A stretch of DNA of 64,000 bases from Escherichia phage AV123: sequence record OR352953.1. One strand, given 5' to 3'. The position numbers and the translations under genes were made by a program. Positions within the stretch are counted from its first letter, which is position 1; each line of letters begins with the position of its first letter. Below are positions 39,010-52,890 of the stretch, piece by piece. The notes under the pieces were generated by a model, which was given only the letters and a program-made list of their open reading frames with translations, was not told the DNA's origin and ran no database searches.

Positions 39010-39069
39010 AATAATCTCCTTAGTAAACTTTACATAGAGTCTAGATTATTTAGTAGATAGAGTCAATAA

Positions 39070-39336: not shown

Positions 39337-39500
39337 AGTATTCTCCTATACAGTAATATACTCTGTTCCTGCCCCTCCATGAGTGACAGGAACAATATCT
39401 ATAGAGAATACTAACTCGCTTCGCTCGTCACCTTTCAGGTTTAGGGTAGCATGTTTTTCTGAAAAAGTCAATACTCTCCACAAAACTTTACAAAATACTT

Positions 39501-39773
39501 TTACATAGGTACAACAGAATCTGTTTTGAAGTCGTACATATGATTTACACCTGTGATTTTTGACATAGAGATTGCACGTTTAGCACCTGCAATTACCTGG
39601 TCTGTCTTCTTAATCTCTTCACGGAACTTACGTACAGTTAAAGAGAAGAAACGATGATCCATCCATTGACGATTCACACGATCACGCTTGAAGTGACGGA
39701 AATCTTCAATCTGCTTATTGCGCAATCGGCGCAGTACATGCAATAGTTGATAGTAAGGGTGTTTATTTTTCAT
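39501..39773 (-). CDS. Hypothetical basic protein
   Basis: GGAGAA RBS. Confidence 0.45.
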   Translation of the reverse strand: MKNKHPYYQLLHVLRRLRNKQIEDFRHFKRDRVNRQWMDHRFFSLTVRKFREEIKKTDQVIAGAKRAISMSKITGVNHMYDFKTDSVVPM

Positions 39774-39776
39774 AAA

Positions 39777-40205
39777 TTATTCTCCAAATCGAAAATCGTC
39801 AATATCATCAAACCATACACAATGGCGAGTCCTTTCTTTTTCTGTTGCAGACATTGTTTCAACAGCTTTAGGACTAAGCACAACAGGAGTGTAACGAATA
39901 GGTCGTTCATAATAGTAGCCATACTTTTCTGTATTAGCTGCCTCAAAGACTTTACGGCGTTCTTCAAGATCTTCTATGGTGAATCCTACCATATAACCAT
40001 CATGTTTGCTACCCCATCCTTCCTCACTTTCAACAATCGGGATATAAAAGCCGTTACGCGTCCCTGACACTGGTTTTTCTTGAGCCTGAAGGCAAGCCTC
40101 CCATCCTGCTTTAAAGACGTTATAGAGCGATTTACGCACGTTATGAGTGCCGCTTTCGCTTGCTGGATAGAGTTCATTAAATTTGTCTTGAATTTGTTGT
40201 GTCAT
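39777..40205 (-). CDS. Hypothetical protein
   Basis: AAGGGGCG RBS. Confidence 0.5.
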   Translation of the reverse strand: MTQQIQDKFNELYPASESGTHNVRKSLYNVFKAGWEACLQAQEKPVSGTRNGFYIPIVESEEGWGSKHDGYMVGFTIEDLEERRKVFEAANTEKYGYYYERPIRYTPVVLSPKAVETMSATEKERTRHCVWFDDIDDFRFGE

Positions 40206-40348
40206 ACTCGCCCCTTAGTGATTATTTGACCAGCTAAACAAATAGCTTGTAGTACAATAAAGAAGTAGCCTAATTTTACACTACCTAATACCCAGAATGC
40301 AATGTTTGCAAACAAACAGAAAGCAATATTAAGTTTAAAGAATAACAT
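40202..40348 (-). CDS. Small hydrophobic ORF (48 aa), coupled
   Basis: GAAGGGG RBS; ATGA overlap with downstream gene. Confidence 0.3.
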   Translation of the reverse strand: MLFFKLNIAFCLFANIAFWVLGSVKLGYFFIVLQAICLAGQIITKGRV

Positions 40349-40549
40349 TTAATCCCCTTCATATTTAGGTAAAGGCATATATGCCACAATAGGAGGGTAA
40401 TCAAAGTGAAAATGATGGTTCACCACAATAATCTTACCAGACATACTTTTATGCACTTCACAATACCCTTTTTCACCATCTTCCATTACCACCACATACT
40501 CACCTAGTGGGATATCGTATGGATCTTCTACTTTTACCCATCCTGTCAT
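40349..40549 (-). CDS. Hypothetical protein
   Basis: GAGGAG RBS. Confidence 0.45.
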   Translation of the reverse strand: MTGWVKVEDPYDIPLGEYVVVMEDGEKGYCEVHKSMSGKIIVVNHHFHFDYPPIVAYMPLPKYEGD

Positions 40550-40698
40550 TTTGTAAACTCCTCATAGTAAGGTAAAGCCTTGATCAGTTGTTCTGAAGTG
40601 CCATTTTGCACCCACGTAACACCATTGTCAACAGAAACATACCCTTTTTTGTCAATAAATTTACGCAGACAACCAGTGAACTTATTTTTGTAGATCAT
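40546..40698 (-). CDS. Small ORF (50 aa), coupled
   Basis: ATGA overlaps at both ends; AAAGGAAAG upstream. Confidence 0.35.
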   Translation of the reverse strand: MIYKNKFTGCLRKFIDKKGYVSVDNGVTWVQNGTSEQLIKALPYYEEFTK

Positions 40699-40862
40699 TT
40701 CTTCTTTCCTTTTTTGATTACAGCCCCATCACTTCCTTGCCAAACTTCCGCTCTAAATTCCATCTCAAACCACTCACCACCGCAAAAACGGCTGTGTTCA
40801 ACACGTCTATCTTCCTTCATTGCTTCTTTAGCTTCGATAGAAGTTAGTTCGATGTTTTGCAT
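40695..40862 (-). CDS. Small ORF (55 aa), first gene of - strand block
   Basis: AAAGGAGAAAAG before ATG at 40862 (MQNIELTS...); track ORF 40695..41036 is an upstream extension. Confidence 0.4.
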   Translation of the reverse strand: MQNIELTSIEAKEAMKEDRRVEHSRFCGGEWFEMEFRAEVWQGSDGAVIKKGKKK

Positions 40863-40980
40863 TTGCTTTTCTCCTTTCATTTGGTATGCGCTAATCTTAA
40901 CAAAATAAAAATGTATGTCAATACTTGATTTGAAATTAGTTTCTGGTACTCTGTGTGTATCGTAACAAAAGAGGTTAGAT
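40863..40980. promoter_or_regulatory. Divergent promoter region at strand switch
   Basis: 118-bp AT-rich gap between divergently oriented first genes (- 40862, + 40981). Confidence 0.4.
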
Positions 40981-41271
40981 ATGAACATCACACTAGCAAC
41001 TAAGAATATTACAGAAACTTTCGATGGTTTTGGCATTATTATTGCTGTTCATGGGCATAACGAAAAATGGTTAGCCTCTTTTGAAGAGGACAAAGAACGC
41101 AATGTACGTTTGAATGCACCAATCAAAGTTTTACACCAGGTAGGTGAGAATAAGAAACAATGGAGATCATACAAAGAGTGGAACATTACAAACGAATTAA
41201 TACACAAACTTGACAAAGTGCTAAACATGTTCGACAATGCACCAAGCAGTGCAAAACGTGTTTTACTATAA
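40981..41271 (+). CDS. Hypothetical protein
   Basis: ORF with AGAGG RBS. Confidence 0.5.
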   Translation: MNITLATKNITETFDGFGIIIAVHGHNEKWLASFEEDKERNVRLNAPIKVLHQVGENKKQWRSYKEWNITNELIHKLDKVLNMFDNAPSSAKRVLL

Positions 41272-41282
41272 AGGAGAGTGAT

Positions 41283-41636
41283 ATGAAAATTGTACACGAT
41301 GAAATTCAATTTGAAGAGAGTGATCTTCTTGATCTGGATGTGACACTAAGTAAACTGATCTACAACGCACTTTCTGCATATCGTGCAAAAGTGATAGCCA
41401 CAAACAATGTTAAAATTCCTAGCGGGTTACTTCGTCGGATGTACCCACACGCTAAAGGTGACTATCTACCTTATATGGAAGAACGAGCAGCAGAACACTG
41501 GTTAGAAATTCTTGAAAAAATGGAGTCCTCTTTTAAGGATTCAACTCCACCTGAAGAAGTTAATGAAAAACAACGGCAAGAGCGTTTAGAAGGTCGTATT
41601 TTGTTTGCTAAGTATTTCCATAATTTGTGGAGCTAA
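41283..41636 (+). CDS. Hypothetical protein
   Basis: AAAGGAGAG RBS. Confidence 0.5.
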   Translation: MKIVHDEIQFEESDLLDLDVTLSKLIYNALSAYRAKVIATNNVKIPSGLLRRMYPHAKGDYLPYMEERAAEHWLEILEKMESSFKDSTPPEEVNEKQRQERLEGRILFAKYFHNLWS

Positions 41637-41716
41637 ACATATCTGGTAAAATCACTTATATGTTCTTAGTATACTTGTGTAAAGAAGTTATCGGTCTAAT
41701 TAATTAAGGGGAAGAT

Positions 41717-41968
41717 ATGATTCAGTTTCAAAAAGGTCAAAAGATGACAGTTCACGATGCAGAGGAAATGGAGTTTGCACTTAAACTTCTCGAAAATGCT
41801 GGGTTTGTGTGGATCAACGGTGGAGAGAAGCCTACAGCTTGGCTTCCGCATGAGAAAATAGCCAACCACACCTTCCCTGATAGTATCAATTGGCATTCTG
41901 ATGGTAAGATTTGCCGTGGAAGTTACCCAACAGGTGTTGAGTGGACTATTAAATTAGGAGGGCTTTAA
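41717..41968 (+). CDS. Hypothetical protein
   Basis: AAGGGGAAG RBS. Confidence 0.5.
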   Translation: MIQFQKGQKMTVHDAEEMEFALKLLENAGFVWINGGEKPTAWLPHEKIANHTFPDSINWHSDGKICRGSYPTGVEWTIKLGGL

Positions 41969-41969
41969 T

Positions 41970-42308
41970 ATGTTTAGTAAAGAAATGAGAGAAGTAATTG
42001 CCACTTTGGTAGTTGATCATGGTGTTGAAGTTGAGCGTCACGTTTGGAACGATGAACCTCCTTTCTTCGATTTGGCATCACGAGCTAAAAGTCATATGCA
42101 CCTGCTGGAAGACGGTAATGAGTTTGTTCTCCGTATGCGTTATGATCGAGAGTTTCGAATTCCGCTTGACACTGAACCAGATGGTGTAGTAATGTGGTTG
42201 GCAGAACATTTCGCATACGATGCACTACATGGAAGAAGTTTTGGTAATGAGCGTTGGGATGCCATTTGTCGTAAGCATAATATTGAACCAGAGTACGGAG
42301 TTTTATAA
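41970..42308 (+). CDS. Hypothetical protein
   Basis: AGGAGGG RBS. Confidence 0.5.
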   Translation: MFSKEMREVIATLVVDHGVEVERHVWNDEPPFFDLASRAKSHMHLLEDGNEFVLRMRYDREFRIPLDTEPDGVVMWLAEHFAYDALHGRSFGNERWDAICRKHNIEPEYGVL

Positions 42309-42559
42309 TGTTAAGTATCAAACCTAAAATGATAACAGCAGATGAAGCAGACTTTATTTTCAAATGTGGACGTGTATGGAGAGAATTCACAAAAGGGAAT
42401 GAAGTGGTGGTTGTTGTCGAACACAAGATATCTATCCAGGATCTGTTTGGACAATATGTTGATGTTATTAAATTAGGTATTGACAAGGGTTTAGTTGAGG
42501 TGTTAACATTAGATCAAGTTGAAGCAGAGCACCTCGACAAAGTAGTGGTTGAATTTTAA
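42308..42559 (+). CDS. Hypothetical protein
   Basis: Coupled (TAATG). Confidence 0.45.
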   Translation: MLSIKPKMITADEADFIFKCGRVWREFTKGNEVVVVVEHKISIQDLFGQYVDVIKLGIDKGLVEVLTLDQVEAEHLDKVVVEF

Positions 42560-42579
42560 AATACAGATGGGAGAAAGGT

Positions 42580-42753
42580 ATGAGTTTCTTTGTTACAGTA
42601 TTTATGGCTATCTGGATTGTAGTCTCACTCGTTCTTTTCCTGGTGGGTTGTCTGGAAGAGATTAAGAAAGCGGTTATTTGCGGTTTCTTTGGCTTTATTA
42701 TCTCTCCTGCCTGGATGTGGTTCTTCATTATGATTGGTTTCCTTAAAAGGTAA
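42580..42753 (+). CDS. Small membrane protein (57 aa), not in track
   Basis: GGGAGAAAGG RBS; two hydrophobic helices. Confidence 0.4.
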   Translation: MSFFVTVFMAIWIVVSLVLFLVGCLEEIKKAVICGFFGFIISPAWMWFFIMIGFLKR

Positions 42754-42767
42754 GTGAGGAATAAAGA

Positions 42768-43205
42768 ATGAGTAAAACAAACGCAATCGCAGATAAAGCA
42801 ACTGATGTACTTCTGAACATGGTTAACGTCACTATTCAAACAATGAGTGATGTTGTAGAGTTTGGAAAACAACAAATTCCAGAAGTAATTCATCAATTAT
42901 TAATGTGGAAAGCAGTATCCGCAGGTTTATGGCAACTTTTTAGTATTTGCTTTATGTTTATTACTTTTATTGTTGTGCGGAACCTCATAAAAGCAATTAA
43001 AGATAAAGAATGTCTGTGGTCACGAGATCGCTATGGTGAGGTATCTGCTTTGCCTATTGTTGGTCTTGTTGTCTGTGCTTTCTTTTTCTTTTTAGGATTT
43101 GTTATTTTCTTTTCGAATTTCGATTGGCTAAAAATTATTATTGCACCAAAAGTGTATCTGATTGAATTTGCTGCTGATTTAATTCGTTCATCTCAACAAA
43201 GATAA
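42768..43205 (+). CDS. Membrane protein
   Basis: GAGGAA RBS; several TM segments. Confidence 0.5.
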   Translation: MSKTNAIADKATDVLLNMVNVTIQTMSDVVEFGKQQIPEVIHQLLMWKAVSAGLWQLFSICFMFITFIVVRNLIKAIKDKECLWSRDRYGEVSALPIVGLVVCAFFFFLGFVIFFSNFDWLKIIIAPKVYLIEFAADLIRSSQQR

Positions 43206-43217
43206 AAGGGGTTTAAA

Positions 43218-44345
43218 ATGAAATACACGATTTATGGTGATATTGTAAGTGTAAATAAAGATATGGGCGTGGAATCTAACTATCTTCCACCTGGATTCTA
43301 TACTGTTAGTCGTGATCCCCTTGGCAATTACTTTTTAAGCCGTGGTAATCTAACAGGTGTACCGGATGTTCTGTATGGTGAAACAGAAAAACGAGCAAAT
43401 CACGTTATTCGTACATTCCATCGCCGGAGTGCACAAGGTAAAAATACAGGTTTGCTCCTGACAGGCACTAAGGGCAGTGGTAAAACTATGTTAGCCAAAC
43501 TCATTAGTCGTGACCTTGTAGAAGAAGGTATTCCAACTATTATGGTTACTCAAGCCTACAGCGATGCTAATTTCATTGAACTTATTAGCAAGATCACCGA
43601 CAAAGCAGTGATTATTTTTGACGAGTTTGATAAAGTATATGAGAAGAAACAAGATCAAGAAGCACTTCTCACTTTGTTAGATGGTACTGGCAGTGGTAAT
43701 AAACTGTTTATTCTAACTAAAAACAGTGGCTTTATCTCTGAATTCTTTCTAAATCGTCCTAGTCGTGTGTTTTATAATTTTAATTATGATAAAATCTCAC
43801 TAGAAACTATGATTGACTATTTAGATAAAAACCTGGATAACAAAGCACACTTTGATAATTTCCAAAGGCTTTGGGATGTAAGTTTAGAGTTGTCCTTTGA
43901 TGTGATCCAAGGTATAGTAGAAGAACTTAATTTCTACCCTGATTTATCCTTTAAAGAATGCATCTCTATGATGGGCGTTTCTTTGGGTGGTGGTAATAAG
44001 TGGGATATCAGCAGCGTTGTTATTAATGGGAAACTTCAGAAAGTTAGCTGGGTATCTAGTTGGCATAACTTCACACCTGCAATCTTTTTAGGTGGCTCGT
44101 GCACACTAGACGTGTACTTGTCATCTCCAAGTGATGCAGACTCTAAAGAAGCCCTTGCTAATAGCTCTTACGTGGTTTTTGATGATGAAGGAGATGCTCG
44201 AATTCCATTGAATGCGACAAAAATGAAAGCAGATCTTATTACAGGCGGTAAAATCGTTGTGTTTAGTGATGATCCAGAAGATTCTTTCCGTATTGTTCTG
44301 GAACCAACTATCACCAATGGTGCAACTTTGGCAAGCGTGTTTTAA
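43218..44345 (+). CDS. P-loop NTPase (AAA-like), paralog of 28095..29255
   Basis: Walker A GTKGSGKT, Walker B IIFDEFDK; LLTLLDG and NRPSR segments shared with the - strand paralog. Confidence 0.65.
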   Translation: MKYTIYGDIVSVNKDMGVESNYLPPGFYTVSRDPLGNYFLSRGNLTGVPDVLYGETEKRANHVIRTFHRRSAQGKNTGLLLTGTKGSGKTMLAKLISRDLVEEGIPTIMVTQAYSDANFIELISKITDKAVIIFDEFDKVYEKKQDQEALLTLLDGTGSGNKLFILTKNSGFISEFFLNRPSRVFYNFNYDKISLETMIDYLDKNLDNKAHFDNFQRLWDVSLELSFDVIQGIVEELNFYPDLSFKECISMMGVSLGGGNKWDISSVVINGKLQKVSWVSSWHNFTPAIFLGGSCTLDVYLSSPSDADSKEALANSSYVVFDDEGDARIPLNATKMKADLITGGKIVVFSDDPEDSFRIVLEPTITNGATLASVF

Positions 44346-44360
44346 GTAAGCCAGCAAATA

Positions 44361-44388
44361 AAAACCCGCTCCGGCGGGTTTTCTTGTA
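44361..44388 (+). terminator. Hairpin terminator
   Basis: AAAAACCCGCTCCGGCGGGTTTTCTT. Confidence 0.65.
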
Positions 44389-44419
44389 TTGATGCCAGAT
44401 TTAATAAGAGGAGTAATAG

Positions 44420-45409
44420 ATGACAGCACCAAAATCATGGGAACAATATAAAGAAGAGTGTATACCAATAGCAGAGAGTAAGCAAATCCAAATCTTAGGA
44501 TGGACGGGACAATGGAAAGGGGTCCACACAAAACTTGATTTGTTGTGCCATTGTGGTTATAAATGGGATACTACAAGTATTAACAGTTTTAAATGTGGTA
44601 GCGGTTGTCCACAATGTAGGAGGAAGAATATAAGGAAGTCACAAACAATGTCCGACGATCAACATATTGCAGATTTCTTTTCTACAGGGGAATTTAAGGA
44701 AGGCACTATCTTCACTAACACAGGAACACGGGGTAAAGGATGTAGGAATATTATCTGGATGGTTGAATGTCCTGTTTGCTCTCATGATGAATATGTTCAA
44801 GCAGGTGTTTGTGATGGTAAATTTTACTCTGAAGGAGATAACCTTAAACGAGGGTATATTCCGTGTCGTTGTGGGAACTATCGGTATACAGAAGACCAGA
44901 TCACCTATAGGGTAAAAAAGGAAGTAGAAGGGAAAGGGTATGTCTGGGTAGATTGGATTACCAAACCCTCTTCTATAGGTAAGTTTAAATATCTTTGTCT
45001 TGTGCATGGTGAGCAGATAGGGAGTGCTAATAATTTATTAAGCCTCGGTCGAGGTTGTCCTATGTGTGCTGGTCATAGTCAGCAGCAGTTATATATTAAT
45101 ATTGTTAAGGATGATAATATTATAGTTGCTCTTAAGTTTGGTATAGCTAAAGATAGTGATAGGCGATTAAACATTCAAAATAGCCGTAATCTGTTTTTTA
45201 TGGAACGTATTTGTTTATATGATTTTAGCACAGTGAAACAGTGTAAGGCTGCTGAAAGAGCTATAAAGAAAAAATTAAAAACTGGTATTTTAACAGCAAG
45301 AGAGTTGAAAGACGGTCATACAGAAACAGTAAGTGTTTCTGATTTGGAAAATCTTCAAAAAATTATTACACAATATGGTGGCAAGTTAGTATACAATAAG
45401 GAGGTGTAA
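44420..45409 (+). CDS. Multi-zinc-ribbon protein with C-terminal T5orf172 (GIY-YIG-like) type region
   Basis: At least four CxxC pairs; C-terminal LYINIVKDDNIIVALKFGIAKDSDRRL resembles T5orf172 core. Confidence 0.4.
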   Translation: MTAPKSWEQYKEECIPIAESKQIQILGWTGQWKGVHTKLDLLCHCGYKWDTTSINSFKCGSGCPQCRRKNIRKSQTMSDDQHIADFFSTGEFKEGTIFTNTGTRGKGCRNIIWMVECPVCSHDEYVQAGVCDGKFYSEGDNLKRGYIPCRCGNYRYTEDQITYRVKKEVEGKGYVWVDWITKPSSIGKFKYLCLVHGEQIGSANNLLSLGRGCPMCAGHSQQQLYINIVKDDNIIVALKFGIAKDSDRRLNIQNSRNLFFMERICLYDFSTVKQCKAAERAIKKKLKTGILTARELKDGHTETVSVSDLENLQKIITQYGGKLVYNKEV

Positions 45410-45961
45410 ATGCGGATTACTGATAAGTATGTGTTCTTCTTTTCAGCAAAAGATGAATTTAGCAACTGGTATCTATCATCTTTTATTGAACCTTTAGCAC
45501 CCAAGTATAATAATTCTATTACAAGTTCTGTTGAATTTACTTGTGTGGAACAATATATGATGTGGAGAAAAGCATGTTTGTTTTATGATTACAGTATTGC
45601 ATCTTCTATTTTAACCGGAGATCTAAGATATACAGGAGAAAAAGAACAAGCATATTATAAGCGACTAGGCAGATTAGTTAAAGATTATGATGAAGATACC
45701 TGGACTTCTTTACGGGAGAAGATTGTCAAACGTGGTTTGTATCTTAAATACACACAAAATGAAGATCTCAAAAATAAACTTATAACCTACGCAGATAAGG
45801 AGTTCGTAGAGGCAAGCCCTTATGATTCTATTTATGGTATCAAAATGGGGATGTGGGATCGTGACGTGGAAAATAAGGACTGTTGGAAAGGACAAAATCT
45901 TTTAGGAAAATGGCATACAGACCTTGCTGTTTATCTAAAAGCACAATCTGATATTTCCTGA
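45410..45961 (+). CDS. NADAR (YbiA-like) domain protein
   Basis: FFFS...SNWY...F...EQYMMWRKA...LGRLV...EASPYDSIYGIKMG...GQNLLGK matches NADAR signature blocks. Confidence 0.65.
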   Translation: MRITDKYVFFFSAKDEFSNWYLSSFIEPLAPKYNNSITSSVEFTCVEQYMMWRKACLFYDYSIASSILTGDLRYTGEKEQAYYKRLGRLVKDYDEDTWTSLREKIVKRGLYLKYTQNEDLKNKLITYADKEFVEASPYDSIYGIKMGMWDRDVENKDCWKGQNLLGKWHTDLAVYLKAQSDIS

Positions 45962-46177
45962 TATTTTGAAAATTTTTATTTTTATAAAAAGGGGTGTGGG
46001 TTTCATGTACGGAAATTCACCCTCTGAATAATATATTCAGAGTAAATATTATTTTGTACTCTGTTAATAAATTATTTAATTTGTTTGTTGGATTATGATA
46101 TCTGGTTTTTAAAAGGCATACTATCTCTTAACTACTATTTATAACAGAACAGTAAAATCATTTTTATAAAAAGGACA

Positions 46178-46390
46178 AAATTATTTAAAGTTTTTACAGA
46201 TTTTTGGATACAAATTTTGAAAATGAAAAGTTCAAGTTTGGTCAAAATTATTTAAAGTTTTTGTATGTATTTCTATCCAGATTTTGAAAATGAAAACTTC
46301 AATTTTTTAAAAATTCCCCAGTTTATTTAAAGTTTTTTTGCCTTTTTCCGTAGAAAAATCAAAAATGAAAAGTTCAATTTCGTGTTTTTA
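46178..46390. repeat. Three tandem direct repeats (66-78 bp units)
   Basis: AAATTATTTAAAGTTTTT...TTTTGAAAATGAAAAGTTCAA recurs at about 46178, 46244 and 46320. Confidence 0.6.
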
Positions 46391-46394
46391 TAGG

Positions 46395-46510
46395 TGTGTT
46401 AATGAGAATCATTTTCGTTTGTAAATGAGAATCATTATCATTTAACTATGTAAGTGATAATCATTCTCACTAAGAGAATGAGAATCATTAGCAAATGAGA
46501 ATTTTTCTCA
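46395..46510. promoter_or_regulatory. Cluster of Fur-box-like palindromes
   Basis: AATGAGAATCATT (46401), AATGAGAATCATTATCATT (46424-46442), GATAATCATTCTC, and perfect inverted repeat AATGAGAA-TTT-TTCTCATT (46492-46510). Confidence 0.5.
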
Positions 46511-46774
46511 TTTAGAGAATAACGCGCAGGGGTGGTGTTTGTCTCGCGCTCCCGTGTCCCCTCGCCATACAATAAGAATAGCATAACCAACAACAAAAGC
46601 AAGCGATTATTTTTATCTTTACATTTCTTTACAAATTTATTTTAGACGAGCTACCAGCGATCAACCTTCCAACCAGTGCCCCCTGGTATGTTAGCCCCGC
46701 CTTTACGCCGTGGGGATGGCGCTTCCTCTTCTGTATGTAAAACAGTATAAGCCCGATCCCTGGGCTTGTCAAGA

Positions 46775-47041
46775 TTATTTTTTGTTTTCTTGCCAGGATA
46801 GGACACCTAACCAAAAATACATGTCGCCCCGCGCCCCTGGCGGGATCTTGCTTTCCCCGCCGCCACTGCAAGCCCATAGATAACCATTTGCGAACGTATC
46901 AAAATGATCTATTTCTTCCACCTTATGATCGCCCAGGTTGAGAACGGTTTCAACCTTTAAGCCCGTTGCGCTTGCTACCTGGTGCACCGTGCCGCCTTGC
47001 CAGCCTAATGAGTGCATGAGGTGTGAAGTAGTATTTGTCAT
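46775..47041 (-). CDS. Hypothetical protein, GC-rich gene on opposite strand
   Basis: AAAGAAAGGGCG leader and GCGCC...GGCGC hairpin upstream on - strand; GC-rich codons. Confidence 0.45.
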   Translation of the reverse strand: MTNTTSHLMHSLGWQGGTVHQVASATGLKVETVLNLGDHKVEEIDHFDTFANGYLWACSGGGESKIPPGARGDMYFWLGVLSWQENKK

Positions 47042-47246
47042 GGTATCGCCCTTTCTTTGATGTGCGCCCTGGTTGGCGCGGTAGAAAGATAATAGCCCTT
47101 TCCTTTATAGATAGCAAGCAAAAAAGAAATGAAAAAAAGATTAAAAAAGGGGTTGACGGTTGGAACGATTAACGCTATTTTGTTAGCCGTTCCAGTGTGG
47201 ATCACTGTAGCAATTGTTGTTTCAATCATTCTATAAGGCGCACACT

Positions 47247-47529
47247 ATGAGCAAGGTAATTAATCATAAAGAGTTAAACCCTACCCTTTCAATGAGTGAA
47301 TGTACCGATGGTTTTTGGCTGTATGATGATACGCGCGGTATGAATTTAGCCATGCGTGAAAAAAACAGAAGAGGCGGCGTATATTAAAGCCCTGGGCTAC
47401 TATCAGGAGCGATTAAAGGAAGTAGAAAACAATTATAATAACCTAAAAGCAAAAGTAGATCACTTTATCAGCCAGGTAGCTCATGACGACGATGATCACT
47501 ACTGCGAACAATGTGGATCATATAGTTAA
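47247..47529 (+). pseudogene. ORF interrupted at an A7 run (possible +1 frameshift or sequencing error)
   Basis: Frame from ATG 47247 stops at 47385-47387; downstream frame is open to 47527-47529 and reads as a coiled-coil continuation; A7 run at 47359-47365. Confidence 0.35.
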
Positions 47530-47547
47530 AATTATCTAAAAATATTC

Positions 47548-47607
47548 TTGACAACGTTTTTTAATCTGATAAGATGTAACAAATAAGGCGGGAAGTGGTT
47601 TCCCACC
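47548..47607 (+). promoter_or_regulatory. Sigma70-like promoter plus leader hairpin (PeSL-like cassette)
   Basis: TTGACA 47548-47553, -10 TAAGAT, hairpin GGCGGGAAGTGGTTTCCCACC 47587-47607, then RBS and ATG 47633. Confidence 0.55.
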
Positions 47608-47632
47608 AGGCAATCAAAGAAAGGGTAACACA

Positions 47633-47995
47633 ATGAGCAAGCAAATCAATACTATCATGTTAAACCTGGTATCTTTCCGCGATGACGTGAAAAACCTTCC
47701 GCGTGATGCAGTGGATGCACGGATCGAAAGCTATCGCACACAGATCGCAACATTACCGTTAAAACGTGATCAACATGCCGCTAATATGATGCTTGATGCT
47801 ATGATTAAAAAGATGATTCAGTGTGATATTACCCTGGCTTATGAATATGCTGGCGATCTATTTGTAACATACAATAAACCCGTTCCAGGTATGAGCACAA
47901 CCGAAGAATTGCATGCCTTAAATCTGAGACAAGATGCATGGGATAACATGCGCCGTGTTATGGTATGGGTAGAAAGCGGCAAAATTTACGCGTAA
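47633..47995 (+). CDS. Hypothetical protein
   Basis: AAAGAAAGGG RBS after cassette. Confidence 0.55.
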   Translation: MSKQINTIMLNLVSFRDDVKNLPRDAVDARIESYRTQIATLPLKRDQHAANMMLDAMIKKMIQCDITLAYEYAGDLFVTYNKPVPGMSTTEELHALNLRQDAWDNMRRVMVWVESGKIYA

Positions 47996-47998
47996 AGA

Positions 47999-48051
47999 TT
48001 GACATTGCACTAAAACCTGATAAGCTATCTTAAAGCGGGAACTATTCCCGC
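47999..48051 (+). promoter_or_regulatory. Promoter plus leader hairpin
   Basis: TTGACA 47999-48004; hairpin GCGGGAACTATTCCCGC 48035-48051. Confidence 0.5.
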
Positions 48052-48070
48052 TTACATAGGATAAAACTTT

Positions 48071-48217
48071 ATGAAACAATATGTAATGAGTATTCACACC
48101 AAAAACGGCGCTACTGTTACGACTCCGGCACGGTTTGCACTTGTAAACCGTTGCAAAAGACTAAAACGAGAGCTAAAAAACAACCGTGCAACGGGCTTTA
48201 AACGCTGGGGAGGATAA
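48071..48217 (+). CDS. Small basic ORF (48 aa), not in track
   Basis: ATG 48071 after hairpin; stop 48215-48217. Confidence 0.3.
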   Translation: MKQYVMSIHTKNGATVTTPARFALVNRCKRLKRELKNNRATGFKRWGG

Positions 48218-48219
48218 TC

Positions 48220-48480
48220 TTGTTTTTTCTAAAAGTTTTTGATAATGTGATCGCTTTTGAACATGCTACAACGTTCGACCTGGCGAGATACGCTATCAGG
48301 TTTAAAGATAATGTTTATCCCCGTGCTGGCGGCGGTTACACTATTTTTAATCATCGCAACGCGCAACTAACTGATATAACTAATCCAGATCCTGGAGTGT
48401 ATCGGATAGGCTGGCTACCGTCAAAAGATGCGGCAAGCATGTTTAAGGTATGTAAACTACTAACAGAAGAGGCGAACTAA
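48220..48480 (+). CDS. Hypothetical protein
   Basis: TTG start 8 nt after GGGAGG. Confidence 0.45.
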   Translation: MFFLKVFDNVIAFEHATTFDLARYAIRFKDNVYPRAGGGYTIFNHRNAQLTDITNPDPGVYRIGWLPSKDAASMFKVCKLLTEEAN

Positions 48481-48481
48481 C

Positions 48482-49036
48482 ATGGGGCGTGAATATGTGA
48501 TCCAGTCCTGGGTAAAGCATGATGCTAATGATCCGCGCATAATACCAGATGACATGATCGATCACATGGTAGGGTATAGCGGGGAGCAGATAGGAAATCG
48601 AGCGGCAAAGAGCAACGGCAACACCAGGACGCGATCCGTTCGCCCTGGATGGCTGGCAAATGGTAACGCTGACATTGCAAGCGCCGCAGATCCAAGCGAT
48701 GACGCTAAAAATAATCCCTTATACAGTATTGATCCGGCTTTTAAGGTGTTGGAAGAGTATCCCGCTAAATTAGCCGCACTAGATAAAGCATACGAAGAAA
48801 AACGGGTGGCATGGACTGTATACAACACCGCTAAAATGGTGCTAGATGCAAAATTGATTAAAGCCCAGGAGAAGATCAATAAACTTGTTACCATAGCGCG
48901 AGAGGAAGACCAGGACGACCAGGAGGAAGAGGAAGAAATCATGCCTAACCTGGAAGAGGAAGAGATCCAGCCATACACGCCGACAGAAGAGGAAAAAATA
49001 CAAGCCTTAAAAAATTATAAAAATTGTATTGTGTAA
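48482..49036 (+). CDS. Hypothetical protein with acidic E-rich C-terminal region
   Basis: Coupled to upstream (TAACATG). Confidence 0.5.
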   Translation: MGREYVIQSWVKHDANDPRIIPDDMIDHMVGYSGEQIGNRAAKSNGNTRTRSVRPGWLANGNADIASAADPSDDAKNNPLYSIDPAFKVLEEYPAKLAALDKAYEEKRVAWTVYNTAKMVLDAKLIKAQEKINKLVTIAREEDQDDQEEEEEIMPNLEEEEIQPYTPTEEEKIQALKNYKNCIV

Positions 49037-49039
49037 GGC

Positions 49040-49095
49040 TTGACATATGCAAACAAGCCCCGTAATATGTACCACATAAAGCGGGGCAACGCCCC
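49040..49095 (+). promoter_or_regulatory. Promoter plus leader hairpin
   Basis: TTGACA 49040-49045, 17-bp spacer, TAATAT 49063-49068, hairpin GCGGGGCAACGCCCC 49081-49095. Confidence 0.55.
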
Positions 49096-49117
49096 ATAAG
49101 GTGAAATAAAAAATCAC

Positions 49118-49145
49118 TTGACACCTGAAATCAGTAAGCTATAAT
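49118..49145 (+). promoter_or_regulatory. Consensus sigma70-like promoter
   Basis: TTGACA 49118-49123, 16-bp spacer, TATAAT 49140-49145. Confidence 0.6.
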
Positions 49146-49182
49146 GCTTATATAGATTGAAACATTACTAAGGAATAAAAGC

Positions 49183-49362
49183 ATGGCTATTATTGCAAAG
49201 ACTGAGATCGTAGGTTTAGATTCTATCATCCTGGCATATGAGGAAGCTATAGAAATGTATGTGGTTTCCTATGGTGATTATATCCGTGAATATAAATCTA
49301 TTGATCTAGCTTTTGAATGCTATATTCGCCAGGTCAATAAAGCATATGATGATTATCGTTAA
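49183..49362 (+). CDS. Small ORF (59 aa), not in track
   Basis: AAGGAA RBS; sits behind two tandem promoters. Confidence 0.4.
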   Translation: MAIIAKTEIVGLDSIILAYEEAIEMYVVSYGDYIREYKSIDLAFECYIRQVNKAYDDYR

Positions 49363-49381
49363 AAGTTTTAGTCTTGTGCTA

Positions 49382-49411
49382 TTGACAACGAACGATAGTA
49401 CAAGCATAATA
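49382..49411 (+). promoter_or_regulatory. Sigma70-like promoter
   Basis: TTGACA 49382-49387 and CATAAT about 17 bp downstream. Confidence 0.45.
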
Positions 49412-49457
49412 ACTTTTATCGGGAATACTCCTAACTAATCAAAAGAGATTAAAGACT

Positions 49458-49823
49458 ATGGCTAAAAATATCAATGTTTCTGCTTATGCTACCCTGGCTA
49501 ACACTGCTAAAATTGAACTATCCAGCATTGAAGCGGTACATATTAGCGCCCGTCGCTGGTTTCAAAAGTCTTATGGTAATACTTATTTCTCTTTGATGGT
49601 TGACGTTGAGATCGGCGGTAAACTGATTGAAGTCGTTAACGTTCCGTTTCAATATGGTTATGGTGATCATTTTGATACCGTTGCCCTAGAAGAGTTTAGC
49701 AAGGTTATCAACCTGGAAGGTAAAGAGTTTTCAAATTATGCATACCTTTCCCGTTTTTGCCGTGATAATGGGATCGCTGTATACAGTCATGCAAGCGATG
49801 TTAAACGTAAAAAAGATTTATAA
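49458..49823 (+). CDS. Hypothetical protein
   Basis: AAGAGA RBS. Confidence 0.5.
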   Translation: MAKNINVSAYATLANTAKIELSSIEAVHISARRWFQKSYGNTYFSLMVDVEIGGKLIEVVNVPFQYGYGDHFDTVALEEFSKVINLEGKEFSNYAYLSRFCRDNGIAVYSHASDVKRKKDL

Positions 49824-49829
49824 AAAGCA

Positions 49830-49887
49830 TTGACAGCACGAATAAAAAGCATATAATACTTATATCGAGAGCGGGAATAGTTCCCGC
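49830..49887 (+). promoter_or_regulatory. Promoter plus leader hairpin
   Basis: TTGACA 49830-49835, TATAAT 49852-49857, hairpin GCGGGAATAGTTCCCGC 49871-49887. Confidence 0.6.
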
Positions 49888-49911
49888 CTCACTGAAAAAG
49901 AGATTAACATC

Positions 49912-50151
49912 ATGGCTAAATCTAAAATGTTCTTAGGTCACAAAAACAAAACTCATTGGAATGTAAGCCTTTGGATCAACAACGATGAAGGTTTTTATAA
50001 TCTTGCGCGTGAATTTATCGCAGCTAACACCAATAAGAATGACGCAGCGCGGGATATGATGTTATTTCTTGAAAGTATGGATCAAGATAAAACGCCAGAC
50101 GGATTCAAGTTCAGTAAAACCGCGATCCGTGCCGCTATGGTTGGAATGTAA
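49912..50151 (+). CDS. Hypothetical protein
   Basis: AAAGAG leader. Confidence 0.5.
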   Translation: MAKSKMFLGHKNKTHWNVSLWINNDEGFYNLAREFIAANTNKNDAARDMMLFLESMDQDKTPDGFKFSKTAIRAAMVGM

Positions 50152-50246
50152 AGGAGGTATAAAAATGAAACATCGTTCGACCTATCTCACAAAACGTTTT
50201 AGCTTAGATCATAAGTTAGGCTATTACGGAAGAAATAGAAAATAAT

Positions 50247-50306
50247 TTGACACTGTTTAAAATTCTGGTATAGTTTATCACATAGGGCGGGAAATGGTTT
50301 CCCGCC
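50247..50306 (+). promoter_or_regulatory. Promoter plus leader hairpin
   Basis: TTGACA 50247-50252, TATAGT, hairpin GGCGGGAAATGGTTTCCCGCC 50286-50306 (9-bp stem, 3-nt loop). Confidence 0.6.
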
Positions 50307-50328
50307 AAATCAAAGAAAGGTTATCATT

Positions 50329-50556
50329 ATGGCTATCGTTATTGTTCGCGTATCCGGTACGGTTGGAAGCTCCCAGGTAGTAGCAGTTATCACAGAGAAG
50401 AAAGGGGATGATCTTCACTCCTCCTTGAATAGCTGGGCGGTCGCTAACTTTGGGCAATGGTCGAGCGTTGAGTACATCGAATCCTACCAGGTGCCAACGA
50501 TTAGCCTAACCGATCTAAATGTTGATCGCTTGTTGTGCCTGGATCAATTAAACTAA
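50329..50556 (+). CDS. Hypothetical protein
   Basis: AAAGAAAGG leader. Confidence 0.5.
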   Translation: MAIVIVRVSGTVGSSQVVAVITEKKGDDLHSSLNSWAVANFGQWSSVEYIESYQVPTISLTDLNVDRLLCLDQLN

Positions 50557-50564
50557 AAATAATA

Positions 50565-50620
50565 TTGACAAGATAACTAAAATCAGTAAAATGTAATGCA
50601 TAGGGCGGCAATAGTGCCGC
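50565..50620 (+). promoter_or_regulatory. Promoter plus leader hairpin
   Basis: TTGACA 50565-50570, TAAAAT, hairpin GCGGCAATAGTGCCGC. Confidence 0.5.
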
Positions 50621-50643
50621 TCCTAGTGAGAGAGATTATCAAG

Positions 50644-50859
50644 ATGGCTAATATCCGCACACTGTTAAAAAATGCAAGTCAAGTTTTATTTTCAGATGAC
50701 GAGTATTTCAACAAAGACATTACAGGCGTGAAAAATTTAAAAGACGTGAAGGATGTTATCGGTATCCGTGGATCTTTACGTAAAGGTGACATATACGGTA
50801 ACAAGGTGCAATATAAACTGTCAAAAGATTATGATTTTACTTTGACATTTATTTCATAA
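50644..50859 (+). CDS. Hypothetical protein
   Basis: Start at MANIRT after leader; track start is an upstream extension through the hairpin. Confidence 0.5.
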   Translation: MANIRTLLKNASQVLFSDDEYFNKDITGVKNLKDVKDVIGIRGSLRKGDIYGNKVQYKLSKDYDFTLTFIS

Positions 50860-50865
50860 AACCGC

Positions 50866-50926
50866 TTGCAATACTGCAAAAATAAAGTAAACTGTATTCA
50901 TCAAGGCGGTGGAATAGCCCACCGCC
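50866..50926 (+). promoter_or_regulatory. Promoter plus leader hairpin
   Basis: TTGCAA, TAAACT, hairpin GGCGGTGG-AATAGC-CCACCGCC 50905-50926. Confidence 0.45.
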
Positions 50927-50949
50927 TAACAAAGAGAAGAGGAAACATC

Positions 50950-51120
50950 ATGATCACTTTCGCTACCCGTGAAGCCGCTCGCAACGTTGCACGTAAAGTT
51001 AACGCCGCCAACCTGGGCGCTACGCTTAAAGCCCCGGTAAAAGATGAATCAGGTAAATGGATCTTCCCTGGTCTGCGTCACGCTGATAAGCTGGGAACGT
51101 TAACGCTAAAAAATAAATAA
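50950..51120 (+). CDS. Small hypothetical protein (56 aa)
   Basis: AGAGAAGAGGAAA leader then ATG 50950. Confidence 0.45.
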   Translation: MITFATREAARNVARKVNAANLGATLKAPVKDESGKWIFPGLRHADKLGTLTLKNK

Positions 51121-51127
51121 AATCCGC

Positions 51128-51186
51128 TTGACAGTAGCATCATTTATAAGTAAAGTAACAACAACGGCGGGAAATGGTTTCCCGCC
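51128..51186 (+). promoter_or_regulatory. Promoter plus leader hairpin
   Basis: TTGACA 51128-51133, TAAAGT, hairpin GGCGGGAAATGGTTTCCCGCC 51166-51186. Confidence 0.6.
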
Positions 51187-51206
51187 ATCAATAAAGAGAT
51201 AAGATC

Positions 51207-51566
51207 ATGAAATCAGTAAAAGCAATTAAAACTTACATTGTGTCGGCTATTTCTTTTGATGGTACTACAACCGAAAAAGAAAAGATCACCGAACTGATGC
51301 GCCGTTTTAACTCTGAATACTGGTATCCCGATAATCAAAAACGTTACAATTATAACGTGATCAAGGCGATAGCCTCATGGTTACAAGGTTTACCGTCAGA
51401 CATTAACATCGCCTTTGATTATAACGAGATTGATCATTTATTAATTGAATGGAAGTACATAAAAGAAACAAGCAAAGAAACAACCGTTACCCGTGAGCGG
51501 GAAAATTATTGGTTATATATTGCAAGCATGATCGTAATCCTGGCAAAACAGCATAACGTGGCGTAA
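51207..51566 (+). CDS. Hypothetical protein
   Basis: AAAGAGA leader. Confidence 0.5.
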   Translation: MKSVKAIKTYIVSAISFDGTTTEKEKITELMRRFNSEYWYPDNQKRYNYNVIKAIASWLQGLPSDINIAFDYNEIDHLLIEWKYIKETSKETTVTRERENYWLYIASMIVILAKQHNVA

Positions 51567-51581
51567 TTAAGAGGAAGAAAC

Positions 51582-51719
51582 ATGAACGCATCACAGCAGA
51601 TCGAAAAATTCAACCGCAGCAAGGCGCGTAAAGATTGGAACGAAGAGATCACCAAAAAAGGCGACAAGCGGAACAAAACAAAGAGAGATCGCAGCACAAA
51701 AAGATACTGGAACGAATAA
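51582..51719 (+). CDS. Small highly basic ORF (45 aa), not in track
   Basis: GAGGAAGAAA RBS; K/R-rich product; terminator follows. Confidence 0.35.
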   Translation: MNASQQIEKFNRSKARKDWNEEITKKGDKRNKTKRDRSTKRYWNE

Positions 51720-51723
51720 CAAA

Positions 51724-51747
51724 AAAGGGCGCAATAAGCGCCCTTTT
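51724..51747 (+). terminator. Hairpin terminator
   Basis: AAGGGCGCAATAAGCGCCCTTTT. Confidence 0.65.
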
Positions 51748-51838
51748 AGCTTATATAGAGGCTTGTTACCCATAGGCAATGGTAACGCCAGGATAAGCCT
51801 ATAAATCAACGTTAGACGGCTTTACAGGAGCTTTAAAA

Positions 51839-52021
51839 ATGAAATTAGACGAAATAAGCAAGGCACTAGCCCAGGGGCAAAGGTTATGCGCCCGATATCG
51901 TGATCAATATGGCTTCATAACTAGCGGCGTGATCCTGGGGATTGAAGGCAATAAGATTTTTATTGACACGTTGAAAAACGTTGTATATAGTGACAATATA
52001 ATCTCAATAAAACATATATGA
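51839..52021 (+). CDS. Hypothetical protein
   Basis: AGGAG RBS. Confidence 0.45.
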   Translation: MKLDEISKALAQGQRLCARYRDQYGFITSGVILGIEGNKIFIDTLKNVVYSDNIISIKHI

Positions 52022-52029
52022 GGCAAGAA

Positions 52030-52431
52030 ATGAAAAAATTATTGATCGCTGGTTTAATCTCTTTTGGCATGGTTGGAACATCTAGCGCGGCGATATCCTC
52101 CACAGTAGCAGAATTAAGCGCCGTTGATGCAATGGAAAACGTCATGCTTATTAATAATGCGATCCCCGATGAAATCATGGAGGATTCACACATGATCGCT
52201 TATGGTGCTGTTACACAACTAACGGCAAAAATAGATAAATCTATTGTTAACGGCTTAAATGAAGATGTGCCATGTGAAATTATTACCAGTGTGCTGACTA
52301 CTCAAAATTTTACGCCGTGGTTAAAAAGTATTCAAAAAGTACACAGTACAGCCGCAGATCGTAGCAATGAAAAACTAGTGTCAGCACTTGCAACGTATAC
52401 CCTAGCAAAATGCACCGAGATAAAAGATTGA
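52030..52431 (+). CDS. Secreted hypothetical protein
   Basis: Start at MKKLLIAG with GAGG RBS; signal peptide ending SSAAIS. Confidence 0.5.
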   Translation: MKKLLIAGLISFGMVGTSSAAISSTVAELSAVDAMENVMLINNAIPDEIMEDSHMIAYGAVTQLTAKIDKSIVNGLNEDVPCEIITSVLTTQNFTPWLKSIQKVHSTAADRSNEKLVSALATYTLAKCTEIKD

Positions 52432-52456
52432 CAACATAGAAAGCACGTTATAAGAT
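52428..52456 (+). promoter_or_regulatory. Sigma70-like promoter
   Basis: TTGACA 52428-52433, 17-bp spacer, TAAGAT 52451-52456. Confidence 0.5.
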
Positions 52457-52478
52457 ACACACAACAAAGGAGAACTAC

Positions 52479-52781
52479 ATGAACGGCATAGCTAAAACGT
52501 TTTTTCTTTTTTCTGGTGTAAATGATCCATCAATAAAAGTCGATAGTGTAAAAGAAAACAATACTATCACCGCTAAATTGTTTCAAGATGAAACAAATAA
52601 CGTGCTAATCATTAATCTTAAAGAAATAACGAAAGGTTATTATACTATTGCTTACCATGCAATCTATCGTGCTGGTACTAGTGAGGAAGTGCAAACAAGC
52701 AACAACGAAAGCGCGGCACTACCTGGTGATCTGGTGCTGGGCGTTATCAGTTTAATTGTCAATGATTTTTTTAAGGAGTAA
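52479..52781 (+). CDS. Hypothetical protein
   Basis: AAAGGAGAA RBS. Confidence 0.5.
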   Translation: MNGIAKTFFLFSGVNDPSIKVDSVKENNTITAKLFQDETNNVLIINLKEITKGYYTIAYHAIYRAGTSEEVQTSNNESAALPGDLVLGVISLIVNDFFKE

Positions 52782-52785
52782 AACC

Positions 52786-52881
52786 ATGCCCTATTTACAT
52801 TTATTTTTCGGTATCTTATTGACAGGATCTTTTTTCTTCTGTATGCTTGTTTCTATTGTAAACCACGTTTTAAGACATTAA
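52786..52881 (+). CDS. Hydrophobic micro-ORF (31 aa), tentative
   Basis: AAGGAG 7 nt upstream of ATG. Confidence 0.25.
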   Translation: MPYLHLFFGILLTGSFFFCMLVSIVNHVLRH

Positions 52882-52890
52882 GGAAACAGC

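Follow-up and report, generated by a model that had tools for sequence, protein, structure and literature searches.

What is the function of a set of tandem repeats that lies, together with a short inverted repeat, in a gene-free gap of a large virulent coliphage? The locus belongs to Escherichia phage AV123, of which a stretch of 64,000 nucleotides (record OR352953.1) was analysed; this stretch is called the window throughout. The locus was originally predicted to be a dense arrangement of potential protein-binding sites, consisting of a perfect 21-bp palindrome followed by three tandem repeats. The analysis finds the repeats to be a real, selected and non-coding element that probably serves to bind a protein; what makes them valuable is above all the module around them.

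The Locus and Its Neighbors

The genome that hosts the locus is that of a phi92-like coliphage (Justusliebigvirus, Stephanstirmvirinae); over 45400-47400 its identity is 97% to phi92 and reaches 99% to phage VEcB. The gap without conserved ORFs measures 813 bp (45962-46774), rather than the 660 bp first given, and is bordered by the final gene of a plus-strand operon on the left and by a small reverse gene on the right:

45410 to 45961, plus strand: NADAR-domain gene, homologue of phi92 gp223 (ORF list; Pfam NADAR, E = 5.8e-36; phi92 annotation)
46775 to 47041, minus strand: small reverse gene of the phi92 gp224 family, 88 aa (phrog_19316)

Homologues of gp224 extend down to 45% identity; its predicted structure is confident (pLDDT 93.5), and no structural relative was found. 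A search of 45500-47600 against Rfam at a permissive E-value gave chance-level matches only, with none at the gathering score, and ARAGORN found neither tRNA nor tmRNA in the window. Conservation was compared across 14 Justusliebigvirus genomes, namely the AV123 window and 13 relatives; retrieval of the locus from IMG/VR by way of the NADAR gene covered five loci only and contributed little. The GenBank record of phage inny already carries a “repeat_region” at the equivalent place, annotated without comment. A literature search on the repeats, origins and transcriptomes of the rV5 and phi92 groups, and on phage Fur boxes, yielded no explanation. The composite module of this control region appears to be undescribed, the repeats themselves having been seen before yet left unexplained.

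The Inverted Repeat and the Hairpins behind the Operon

The 21-bp sequence CTCTGAATAATATATTCAGAG is present as predicted, but it lies one base further on, at 46022-46042 instead of 46021-46041. Being of odd length it cannot be a perfect palindrome; its 9-bp arms, CTCTGAATA and TATTCAGAG, flank a 3-nt center, ATA. It shares its ground with two hairpins:

45990 to 46025, plus strand: RNA hairpin of 14 bp, directly after the operon (context fold; the same hairpin occurs in phi92)
46022 to 46042, no strand assigned: inverted repeat CTCTGAATA-ATA-TATTCAGAG, overlapping both flanking hairpins and perfect in AV123 only
46038 to 46063, plus strand: second hairpin, CAGAGTA-N12-TACTCTG (7 bp), followed by T-rich sequence (context fold)

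Folded alone, the inverted repeat reaches −9.5 kcal/mol (z = −3.9) with a 9-bp stem that contains only three G-C pairs. When its 86-nt context is folded (45985-46070; −23.1 kcal/mol, z = −3.3), it is not used at all, and the minimum-energy structure consists of the two flanking hairpins, which borrow its left and right arms. The first of these contains three G.U pairs and therefore forms well on the plus strand only; a T-to-C change at 46017 in five relatives converts one G.U into G-C. The second, a weak candidate for a terminator, is weakened in some relatives by changes at 46057 and 46060.

The symmetry of the inverted repeat is not shared by the relatives. Position 46037 is C in all 13 of them, leaving an A.C mismatch, and T solely in the AV123 window; the phi92 group differs further at 46027, 46029 and 46031. 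Altogether five of the 21 positions vary, the perfect form is found in one of the 14 genomes, and none of the arm substitutions is compensated, which speaks against both a conserved palindromic operator and the predicted protein-binding site. Nor does the sequence have the features of an intrinsic terminator: the terminator scan made no call on it, and the T-run begins about 9 nt past its stem. The surrounding 198 bp (45962-46159) are the fastest-evolving part of the gap, and at the equivalent stretch after the upstream gene Phapecoctavirus has a different GC-rich stem followed by the same TATTATTTTGT tail. We conclude that the palindrome is best regarded as incidental, the accident of one substitution, with no conserved protein site, and that the stretch is a hairpin or terminator zone which ends the upstream operon and stands outside the repeat device.

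Anatomy of the Tandem Repeats

The repeats are on firmer ground. Tandem Repeats Finder confirmed a 67-bp unit (2.0 copies over 46176-46306, 82% matches), and a separate repeat search resolved three 79-nt copies, at 46160, 46227 and 46302, which are 71-73% identical. The copies are spaced by 67 and 75 bp, so the predicted unit of 66-78 bp was roughly right, and together they span 46160-46380:

46160 to 46238, no strand assigned: tandem repeat 1 (box A 46181-46195, box B 46220-46235)
46227 to 46305, no strand assigned: tandem repeat 2 (box A 46248-46262, box B 46287-46302)
46302 to 46380, no strand assigned: tandem repeat 3 (box A 46323-46337, box B 46362-46377)

As the original prediction had it, two shared motifs recur in all three units. 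Box A, TTATTTAAAGTTTTT, occurs in exactly three copies, starting at 46181, 46248 and 46323; with up to two mismatches it finds five matches in the window, where 1.6 are expected. Box B, AAAATGAAAAGTTCAA, occurs at 46220, 46287 (with one mismatch) and 46362 against an expectation of 0.3, and three matches were reached in none of 100 shuffles. The start-to-start offset from box A to box B is 39 bp in each unit, leaving a gap of 24 bp that is filled by a variable spacer. Neither box has a match of comparable quality elsewhere in the 64-kb window, and the possibility that they represent a genome-wide motif was rejected on the ground of this restriction to the repeat locus. Searching IMG/VR with the gapped A-B pattern returned phi92-like contigs only, plus one chance match inside a coding region. 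A further motif, AAAAGGGGTGTG, was considered as a recurrent signal and rejected for lack of enrichment. Box B, compared by hand, agrees with the Fur consensus at only about 10 of 19 positions, and the repeats are no Fur boxes.

Two conserved boxes at fixed spacing around a variable spacer are an anatomy reminiscent of promoters, and the array does lie upstream of an early-gene region. It could then represent three tandem promoters of the T7 A1-A3 kind, or promoters recognized by a polymerase that the phage has modified. The 24-bp gap, however, misfits the 16-18 bp of the −35/−10 geometry; a sigma-70 scan of 46160-46380 found no match on the plus strand and a single 9/12 match on the minus strand, in repeat 2 only; and a motif found nowhere else in the window does not make a general promoter class. 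We therefore give this less likely explanation very little credence.

Selective Constraint on the Repeats

Across the 14 Justusliebigvirus genomes, six of the 221 positions in the repeats vary (2.7%), and five of these six lie outside the boxes. This compares with 27 of 198 in the left flank (13.6%; p = 3.5e-5), which makes the repeats about five times slower to change, and with 14 of 140 in the Fur-box array that follows them (10%; p = 0.004). Repeat 3 is invariant in all 14 genomes, and the corresponding unit is also the best conserved one in Phapecoctavirus. The comparison of copy number among relatives, in which absence of the repeats would have counted against the original prediction, found three copies in every genome. 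In the sole length variant, phage arall, two Fur boxes are missing and no repeat is. The Phapecoctavirus repeat zone is built of four A-type boxes and three of the B type, at other spacings; among four genomes it differs by one substitution and one indel in about 215 bp, making it the most conserved stretch of the alignment, which changes less than even the adjoining coding sequence. In these two genera, to judge by the alignments, the array is under far stronger purifying selection than its non-coding neighbors.

These numbers bear directly on the suggestion that the repeats are a non-functional tandem duplication, either young or hitch-hiking. DNA so rich in A+T is easily duplicated by slippage, but a passive duplication would be hard to reconcile with the excess conservation in two genera, with the constant three copies, or with an analogous array at the same place in distant genera. 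This reading, one of the less likely ones, is already disfavored and we consider it scarcely credible.

Is the conserved sequence a gene or an RNA? A minus-strand ORF of 36 aa lies inside the repeats, and a few relatives have it annotated as a CDS. It is shortened in three of the 14 genomes, to 21 aa in one and to 9 aa in two, and the remaining changes are amino-acid replacements. The claim that the region is non-coding, which could have failed had relatives proved to encode a protein here, accordingly stands. As for RNA, none of the repeat units folded better than its shuffled versions, whichever strand was taken (z between −1.35 and +1.35). The repeats are a cis-acting DNA element, neither a gene nor a structured RNA.

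A repetitive transcript that acts as a sponge for a protein, like ToxI-like antitoxins or decoys of Hfq or CsrA, deserves some comment in this context. Such a transcript would start at the leftward promoter, or come from polymerases that run on past the end of the upstream operon. There is a precedent in the rV5-like phage PhiTE, which counters ToxIN with tandem RNA repeats (PMC3475682); each AV123 unit contains a U-run and A-rich motifs, and within a genus the spacers are conserved along with the boxes. The lack of a fold signal on either strand speaks against it, as do the units of 67-75 nt where type III antitoxins have 34-45 nt. The hairpins described above stand between the operon and the repeats; downstream there are Fur boxes and a non-coding element instead of a toxin-like gene; and the PhiTE pseudo-ToxI sequence is absent from the 8.9-kb stretch of PhiTE that carries the present module. 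On balance the RNA explanation is less likely, and we would call it quite improbable.

A Cluster of Fur Boxes beside the Repeats

A more informative context lies beyond the coordinates first proposed, in the form of a Fur-box cluster and a conserved element with convergent promoters. The last repeat is followed, after 18 bp, by an array of AATGAGAATCATT boxes:

46398 to 46513, no strand assigned: Fur-box array, with four strong matches at 46398, 46421, 46450 and 46474 and a degenerate palindrome at 46493-46513
46516 to 46521, plus strand: conserved −10-like hexamer GAGAAT (alignment A1), a putative promoter element

The four strong sites differ from the 19-bp E. coli Fur consensus, GATAATGATAATCATTATC, at three or four positions. 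The fepD-entS and fepB-entC intergenic regions of E. coli K-12 contain Fur-regulated ent promoters, and their matches in the same scan were no better than the phage sites. The window holds six sites at four mismatches or fewer, where 0.5 are expected and the maximum in 200 simulations was three. All six are non-coding; the other two fall in an ORF-free region of about 1.7 kb, 57075-58757. The predicted sites match the consensus as a cluster over 46398-46513, as in a Fur operator. A BLAST search of 5,426 E. coli genomes with the Fur array gave nothing informative. In the open-access literature no paper was found that deals with Fur boxes for virulent phages of the T5-like or rV5-like kind.

Whether a promoter accompanies these boxes is less clear-cut. 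No convincing −35 element stands beside them on the plus strand of AV123. In most genera the hexamer reads CAGAAT and TTGAAT precedes it by 18 bp, the Fur palindrome spanning the interval.

A Conserved Element Flanked by a Convergent Promoter

Downstream of the hexamer, the gap is filled by two further features:

46523 to 46740, plus strand: conserved non-coding element of about 220 bp (243 matching phage records; alignments A1 and A5)
46744 to 46772, minus strand: convergent sigma-70 promoter TTGACA-17-TATACT (11/12 consensus match)

The element comprises a GC-rich 5′ part, the motif TCTTTACAxxTCTTTACAAA and a nearly invariant core at 46640-46721. It is in essence a phage sequence: its 26-nt core was found in 13 IMG/VR phage contigs, at one place among 185,579 bacterial and archaeal genomes (a 4-kb metagenome-assembled contig), and a BLAST search of 5,426 E. 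coli genomes gave no match to the core.

RNAalifold, run on 19 sequences, proposed three plus-strand stems, 46563-46567/46717-46721, 46670-46674/46685-46690 and 46695-46700/46710-46715. The closing stem, CGCCA/UGGCG, has a C-to-U change that leaves a wobble pair in nine of the 19 sequences. One core hairpin includes a single covarying pair, A-U in ten sequences and G-C in nine; the other is invariant, with a G.U pair in all 19. Since a G.U pair becomes an A.C mismatch on the opposite strand, an RNA, if there is one, would more readily be read from the plus strand, downstream of the Fur boxes. The GC-rich 5′ part showed no consistent fold, either by eye or by RNAalifold. A second, divergent copy of the core in Certrevirus P7_Pc preserves both hairpins by means of other letters (TATAGCCG/CGGCTATA, and CCAA/TTGG instead of CCCC/GGGG). 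Support for an RNA is modest because most of the core is invariant; the element is probably transcribed on the plus strand, and it may act at the level of DNA.

The convergent promoter has a GC hairpin within its spacer, which could also terminate the reverse gene. As judged by eye, five further members of alignment A1 have equivalent minus-strand hexamers in this position.

The Same Layout in Other Genera

The order of these features is common to Stephanstirmvirinae and Vequintavirinae: lineage-specific repeats, Fur palindromes, the −10-like hexamer, the element of about 220 bp and the convergent sigma-70 promoter. It was read in Seunavirus GEC_vB_MG and EC152, in Certrevirus CR3, P7_Pc and PhiTE, in the Vequintavirinae ChuuTotoro and A73 (rV5-like), and in Klebsiella phage KP13-16 of the Stephanstirmvirinae. 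In the loci of Mydovirus BIS47 and Mydo the layout is complete from the Fur boxes onward; the stretch of about 60 bp that separates these boxes from the annotated CDS before them shows no evident repeats.

According to alignments A1 and A5, most of the layout is held nearly constant. The Fur palindrome is near-identical across genera, usually TTGAATGAGAATCATTCTCATTTGCAGAAT, and can also be read as TTGAAT-18-CAGAAT; the core, CTACCGGCGATCCACCTTCC...GTTAGCCCCGCCTTTWCGCCGTGGGGTGGCG, is near-identical as well, and the minus-strand promoter keeps its position. The tandem repeats, in contrast, vary by lineage (GGTCTCGATCGGTTTTTC...ATCGTATTCTC; ACTTGAGGGGTTTTTCATTT; AGCATTTTTGACAT...AAAATCCATAATTTT), and the units of Certrevirus are set apart by GC-rich spacers. 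The repeats are uniform within a genome and different between genera, a pattern that co-evolution with a protein of the phage would generate. A host factor would be expected to leave its sites unchanged from one related host to the next, and the Fur boxes behave in this way while the repeats do not. It is chiefly on this ground that we infer a binder probably encoded by the phage. The gp224 protein was considered for this role and rejected: it is 75% identical in A73, whose repeats differ greatly, and so does not co-vary with them.

Composition and Predicted Curvature

With 80% A+T the AV123 repeats rank with the GC-poorest segments of 220 bp in the window. Their A-tracts are phased at a period of about 11 bp, with a score of 5.26 that is the window maximum (background maximum 2.76), and intrinsic curvature is therefore predicted. 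The phasing is moderate in Seunavirus and KP13-16 and absent in Certrevirus, ChuuTotoro, A73 and Phapecoctavirus; curvature as a property shared by the repeats across genera was rejected accordingly.

Could the DNA serve by its shape alone? A static A-tract bend may recruit nucleoid proteins of the host such as H-NS or Fis, so as to silence or stimulate the adjoining promoter, with Fur as the antagonist and without any dedicated phage protein. The extreme A-tract periodicity and A+T content at the repeats would fit this purely architectural role. Antagonism between Fur and H-NS has been described for E. coli ftnA, and the adjoining Fur boxes are reminiscent of it. A host protein, however, should preserve either the sequence or the bend across genera, and here the repeats differ and the phasing is lost; the near-invariant 15-16-mers within a genus also exceed what curvature alone would need. 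We hold this explanation to be less likely, and rather improbable.

A Proposed Role for the Array

What kind of element, then, are the repeats? They are best classed as a cis-regulatory or origin-like repeat array. The original reading as potential protein-binding sites gives the best fit for the repeats, though not for the palindrome, because the boxes are unique, selection is strong, and there is no RNA fold, promoter or conserved ORF that would account for them. Our preferred model, held tentatively and with somewhat less than even confidence, is that the repeats are three bipartite protein-binding sites in curved DNA which form an upstream module tuning a Fur-gated promoter. A sequence-specific protein would bind box A and box B in each unit. 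The binder is most likely encoded by the phage, because the sequence of the repeats changes by genus and the layout stays constant. The array would constitute the upstream module, followed by the Fur operators, a weak −10-like element, the conserved element and the convergent sigma-70 promoter, and its role would be to set how active the Fur-gated promoter of the conserved element is, whether through activation, anti-silencing or wrapping of the DNA. In somewhat broader terms, we infer an array of sites for a lineage-specific, probably phage-encoded protein that may control either a Fur-gated promoter or an origin.

The model has its difficulties. Periods of 67 and 75 bp place the sites off one face of the helix, and the spacers are conserved within a genus too, beyond the needs of a simple array of sites. 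The curvature in the model is further weakened by the loss of A-tract phasing in several genera.

The main rival to the array model is a replication origin, in which the repeats would be initiator-binding iterons, an easily melted unwinding region, or both. The convergent promoters would then provide the transcript that primes or activates replication, in the manner of the T7 primary origin, T4 oriF/oriG and ColE1. Several observations fit such a picture. The repeats, at 20% GC, lie at a locus unique in the window, and the strong conserved promoter at 46772-46744 fires toward them through a GC-rich segment. The rV5-like phages have no defined origin (PMC3606486), and T5-like phages put the same Fur-like boxes beside DnaA boxes (bioRxiv 10.1101/866236). 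In AV123, however, there are no DnaA boxes nearby, with no match to TTWTNCACA over 37855-55968. Iterons are 17-22 bp long and in helical phase, where these repeats have bipartite cores at periods of 67-75 bp; the GC-rich spacers of Certrevirus imply that low melting stability is not conserved; and the locus is flanked by the NADAR gene and gp224, with no initiator gene adjoining. The origins of T5 itself are placed elsewhere by the author of the T5 study (bioRxiv 10.1101/866236). We regard this explanation as unlikely.

A bolder proposal, possible yet doubtful, takes the whole locus together: the repeats, the Fur cluster and the convergently transcribed element would form an undescribed iron-gated module, working either as an early-ncRNA switch or as a transcription-primed origin. 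Such a module would be common to two subfamilies of large virulent Enterobacterales phages. Through it, strictly lytic phages may sense the Fur/iron state of the host, or else titrate Fur; the response would be set by a phage protein that is specific to the lineage and occupies the repeats.

The interest of these proposals extends beyond AV123. Phage therapy and biocontrol make wide use of large virulent coliphages from the rV5 and phi92 groups, for which non-coding regions, origins and early regulation have hardly been mapped at all. The combination of the array, the Fur operators and an element found only in phages offers a testable handle both on how early events are coupled to host physiology, iron in particular, and on which phage protein reads the array. 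If the link to Fur is true, the Fur regulon would extend to strictly lytic phages, including the long-puzzling repeat region of T5.

Comparison with Known Systems

There are several well-studied systems to which the AV123 locus can be compared. The iteron arrays and unwinding elements of lambda ori, P1 oriR and the oriC 13-mers are, like the AV123 array, direct repeats at a unique, A+T-rich and non-coding locus, and they too lie beside promoters and sites for host DNA-binding proteins. The differences are in the details: their units are 13-22 bp long, whereas those of AV123 are 67-75 bp and bipartite; AV123 has no DnaA boxes or initiator gene; and the host sites beside its repeats are Fur boxes.

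Operators with multiple Fur boxes are known from the aerobactin iucA promoter and the ryhB promoter. The AV123 array resembles the multi-box operators of E. coli, since it matches the 19-bp consensus as well as fepD-entS and fepB-entC do, and in most genera one palindrome spans the TTGAAT-18-CAGAAT spacer. Unlike the E. coli operators, it belongs to a virulent phage, and what follows it is a non-coding element, not an iron-uptake gene.

The sites of terminase small subunits, such as lambda cosB R1-R3 and SPP1 pacL/pacR, are direct repeats in curved DNA that are bound by a phage protein. AV123 likewise has a few direct repeats in DNA predicted to be curved, but its locus is in an early-gene region, with no adjoining terminase gene.

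Within the same broad group of phages, the pseudo-ToxI of PhiTE consists of tandem 36-nt RNA pseudoknot units whose copy number is open to selection (PMC3475682). Both systems are tandem non-coding repeats; pseudo-ToxI, however, is at another locus, and PhiTE carries the present module separately. The rV5 genome paper marks a “non-coding” box, and its skew analysis located no origin (PMC3606486).

A further parallel comes from T5, a phage unrelated to AV123. For the left terminal repeat of T5, Davison described a large number of repeats along with DnaA boxes, and did not link to Fur the AAATGAGAATCATT boxes that the present analysis finds there (bioRxiv 10.1101/866236). Repeat Region 3 of this terminal repeat, in the region of the “injection stop signal”, is like the AV123 locus long, conserved and non-coding, and contains boxes of the same AAATGAGAATCATT type together with other direct repeats. 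T5 differs in having DnaA boxes, and nine GTGCAAATCCGAC repeats in place of the A/B units.

The conserved non-coding element

The non-coding element between the array of predicted sites for Fur, the host iron regulator, and gp224, a small reverse gene, is conserved in 243 phage records, which span two subfamilies; bacterial genomes lack it. The array itself begins 18 bp past the last of the tandem repeats, and two of its boxes are missing in phage arall. The two features lie at:

46398-46513: four predicted near-consensus Fur boxes, each differing from the 19-bp consensus at 3-4 positions, and one degenerate palindrome
46523-46740: conserved non-coding element, with its core at 46640-46721

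The element is flanked by predicted convergent promoters and has three predicted helices on the + strand, for which G.U pairs and a single covarying pair provide support; it matched no family in Rfam. Its core is found twice in the Pectobacterium phage P7_Pc, in which a ~190-bp insertion (1640-1830) lies inside the core at CTACCGGCGAT. The insertion is a second, divergent copy that preserves both hairpins through different sequences and ends in its own promoter-like TTGTCAAGC.

The conserved minus-strand promoter (46744-46772) has a G+C-rich hairpin, AAGCCC...GGGCTT, as its spacer, and this hairpin could serve as a terminator of the gp224 transcript. In several genera the same spacer is filled by different GC-rich palindromic sequences, and the hairpin is weak in the Seunavirus phage GEC_vB_MG. 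Terminator and promoter thus appear to overlap at this site.

It is worth pointing out that five "Campylobacter phage" records marked UNVERIFIED (MG065639, MG065645, MG065650, MG065656 and MG065689) are 97-98% identical at this locus to phi92-like and phAPEC8-like phages of E. coli; their host labels are probably wrong.

The variable block

In most Justusliebigvirus genomes the alignment to the window stops at ~47158, continuing further only in phi92, cardinal, PD114, PD06 and PD211; the conserved module therefore lies at the left boundary of a variable block. This block, made up of small early genes, is the "island" of the original prediction. Two overlapping ORFs in this region match phrog_19040:

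47214-47387: 57-aa ORF, corresponding to the N-terminal half of the family
47356-47529: 57-aa ORF, corresponding to the C-terminal half

The family is a single one of 94 aa, and its phi92 member, gp225, has 93 aa. Such a split suggests that the gene in this genome is frameshifted, has become a pseudogene or contains a sequencing error.

Comparison with other phage regions

A second, highly A+T-rich region without ORFs (57075-58757, ~1.7 kb) carries more predicted Fur boxes as well as short direct repeats, TAATCATTTCATACAGTAACCATTTCATGTAGTAATCATTCCATAC at about 57690 being an example. The boxes are at:

57319-57337: predicted Fur box
57377-57395: predicted Fur box
58239-58257: predicted Fur box, just 2 mismatches
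58434-58458: further predicted Fur-box sequence

This region may be equivalent to the "non-coding" box drawn in the rV5 genome paper. Boxes of the AAATGAGAATCATT type seen in the window are also found in the T5-like phage saus111K (2150-2680) and other T5-like records. Two of these boxes have no more than 3-4 mismatches to the Fur consensus. The boxes directly adjoin the paired DnaA boxes of the "injection stop" region in the left terminal repeat, and nine GTGCAAATCCGAC repeats come after them.
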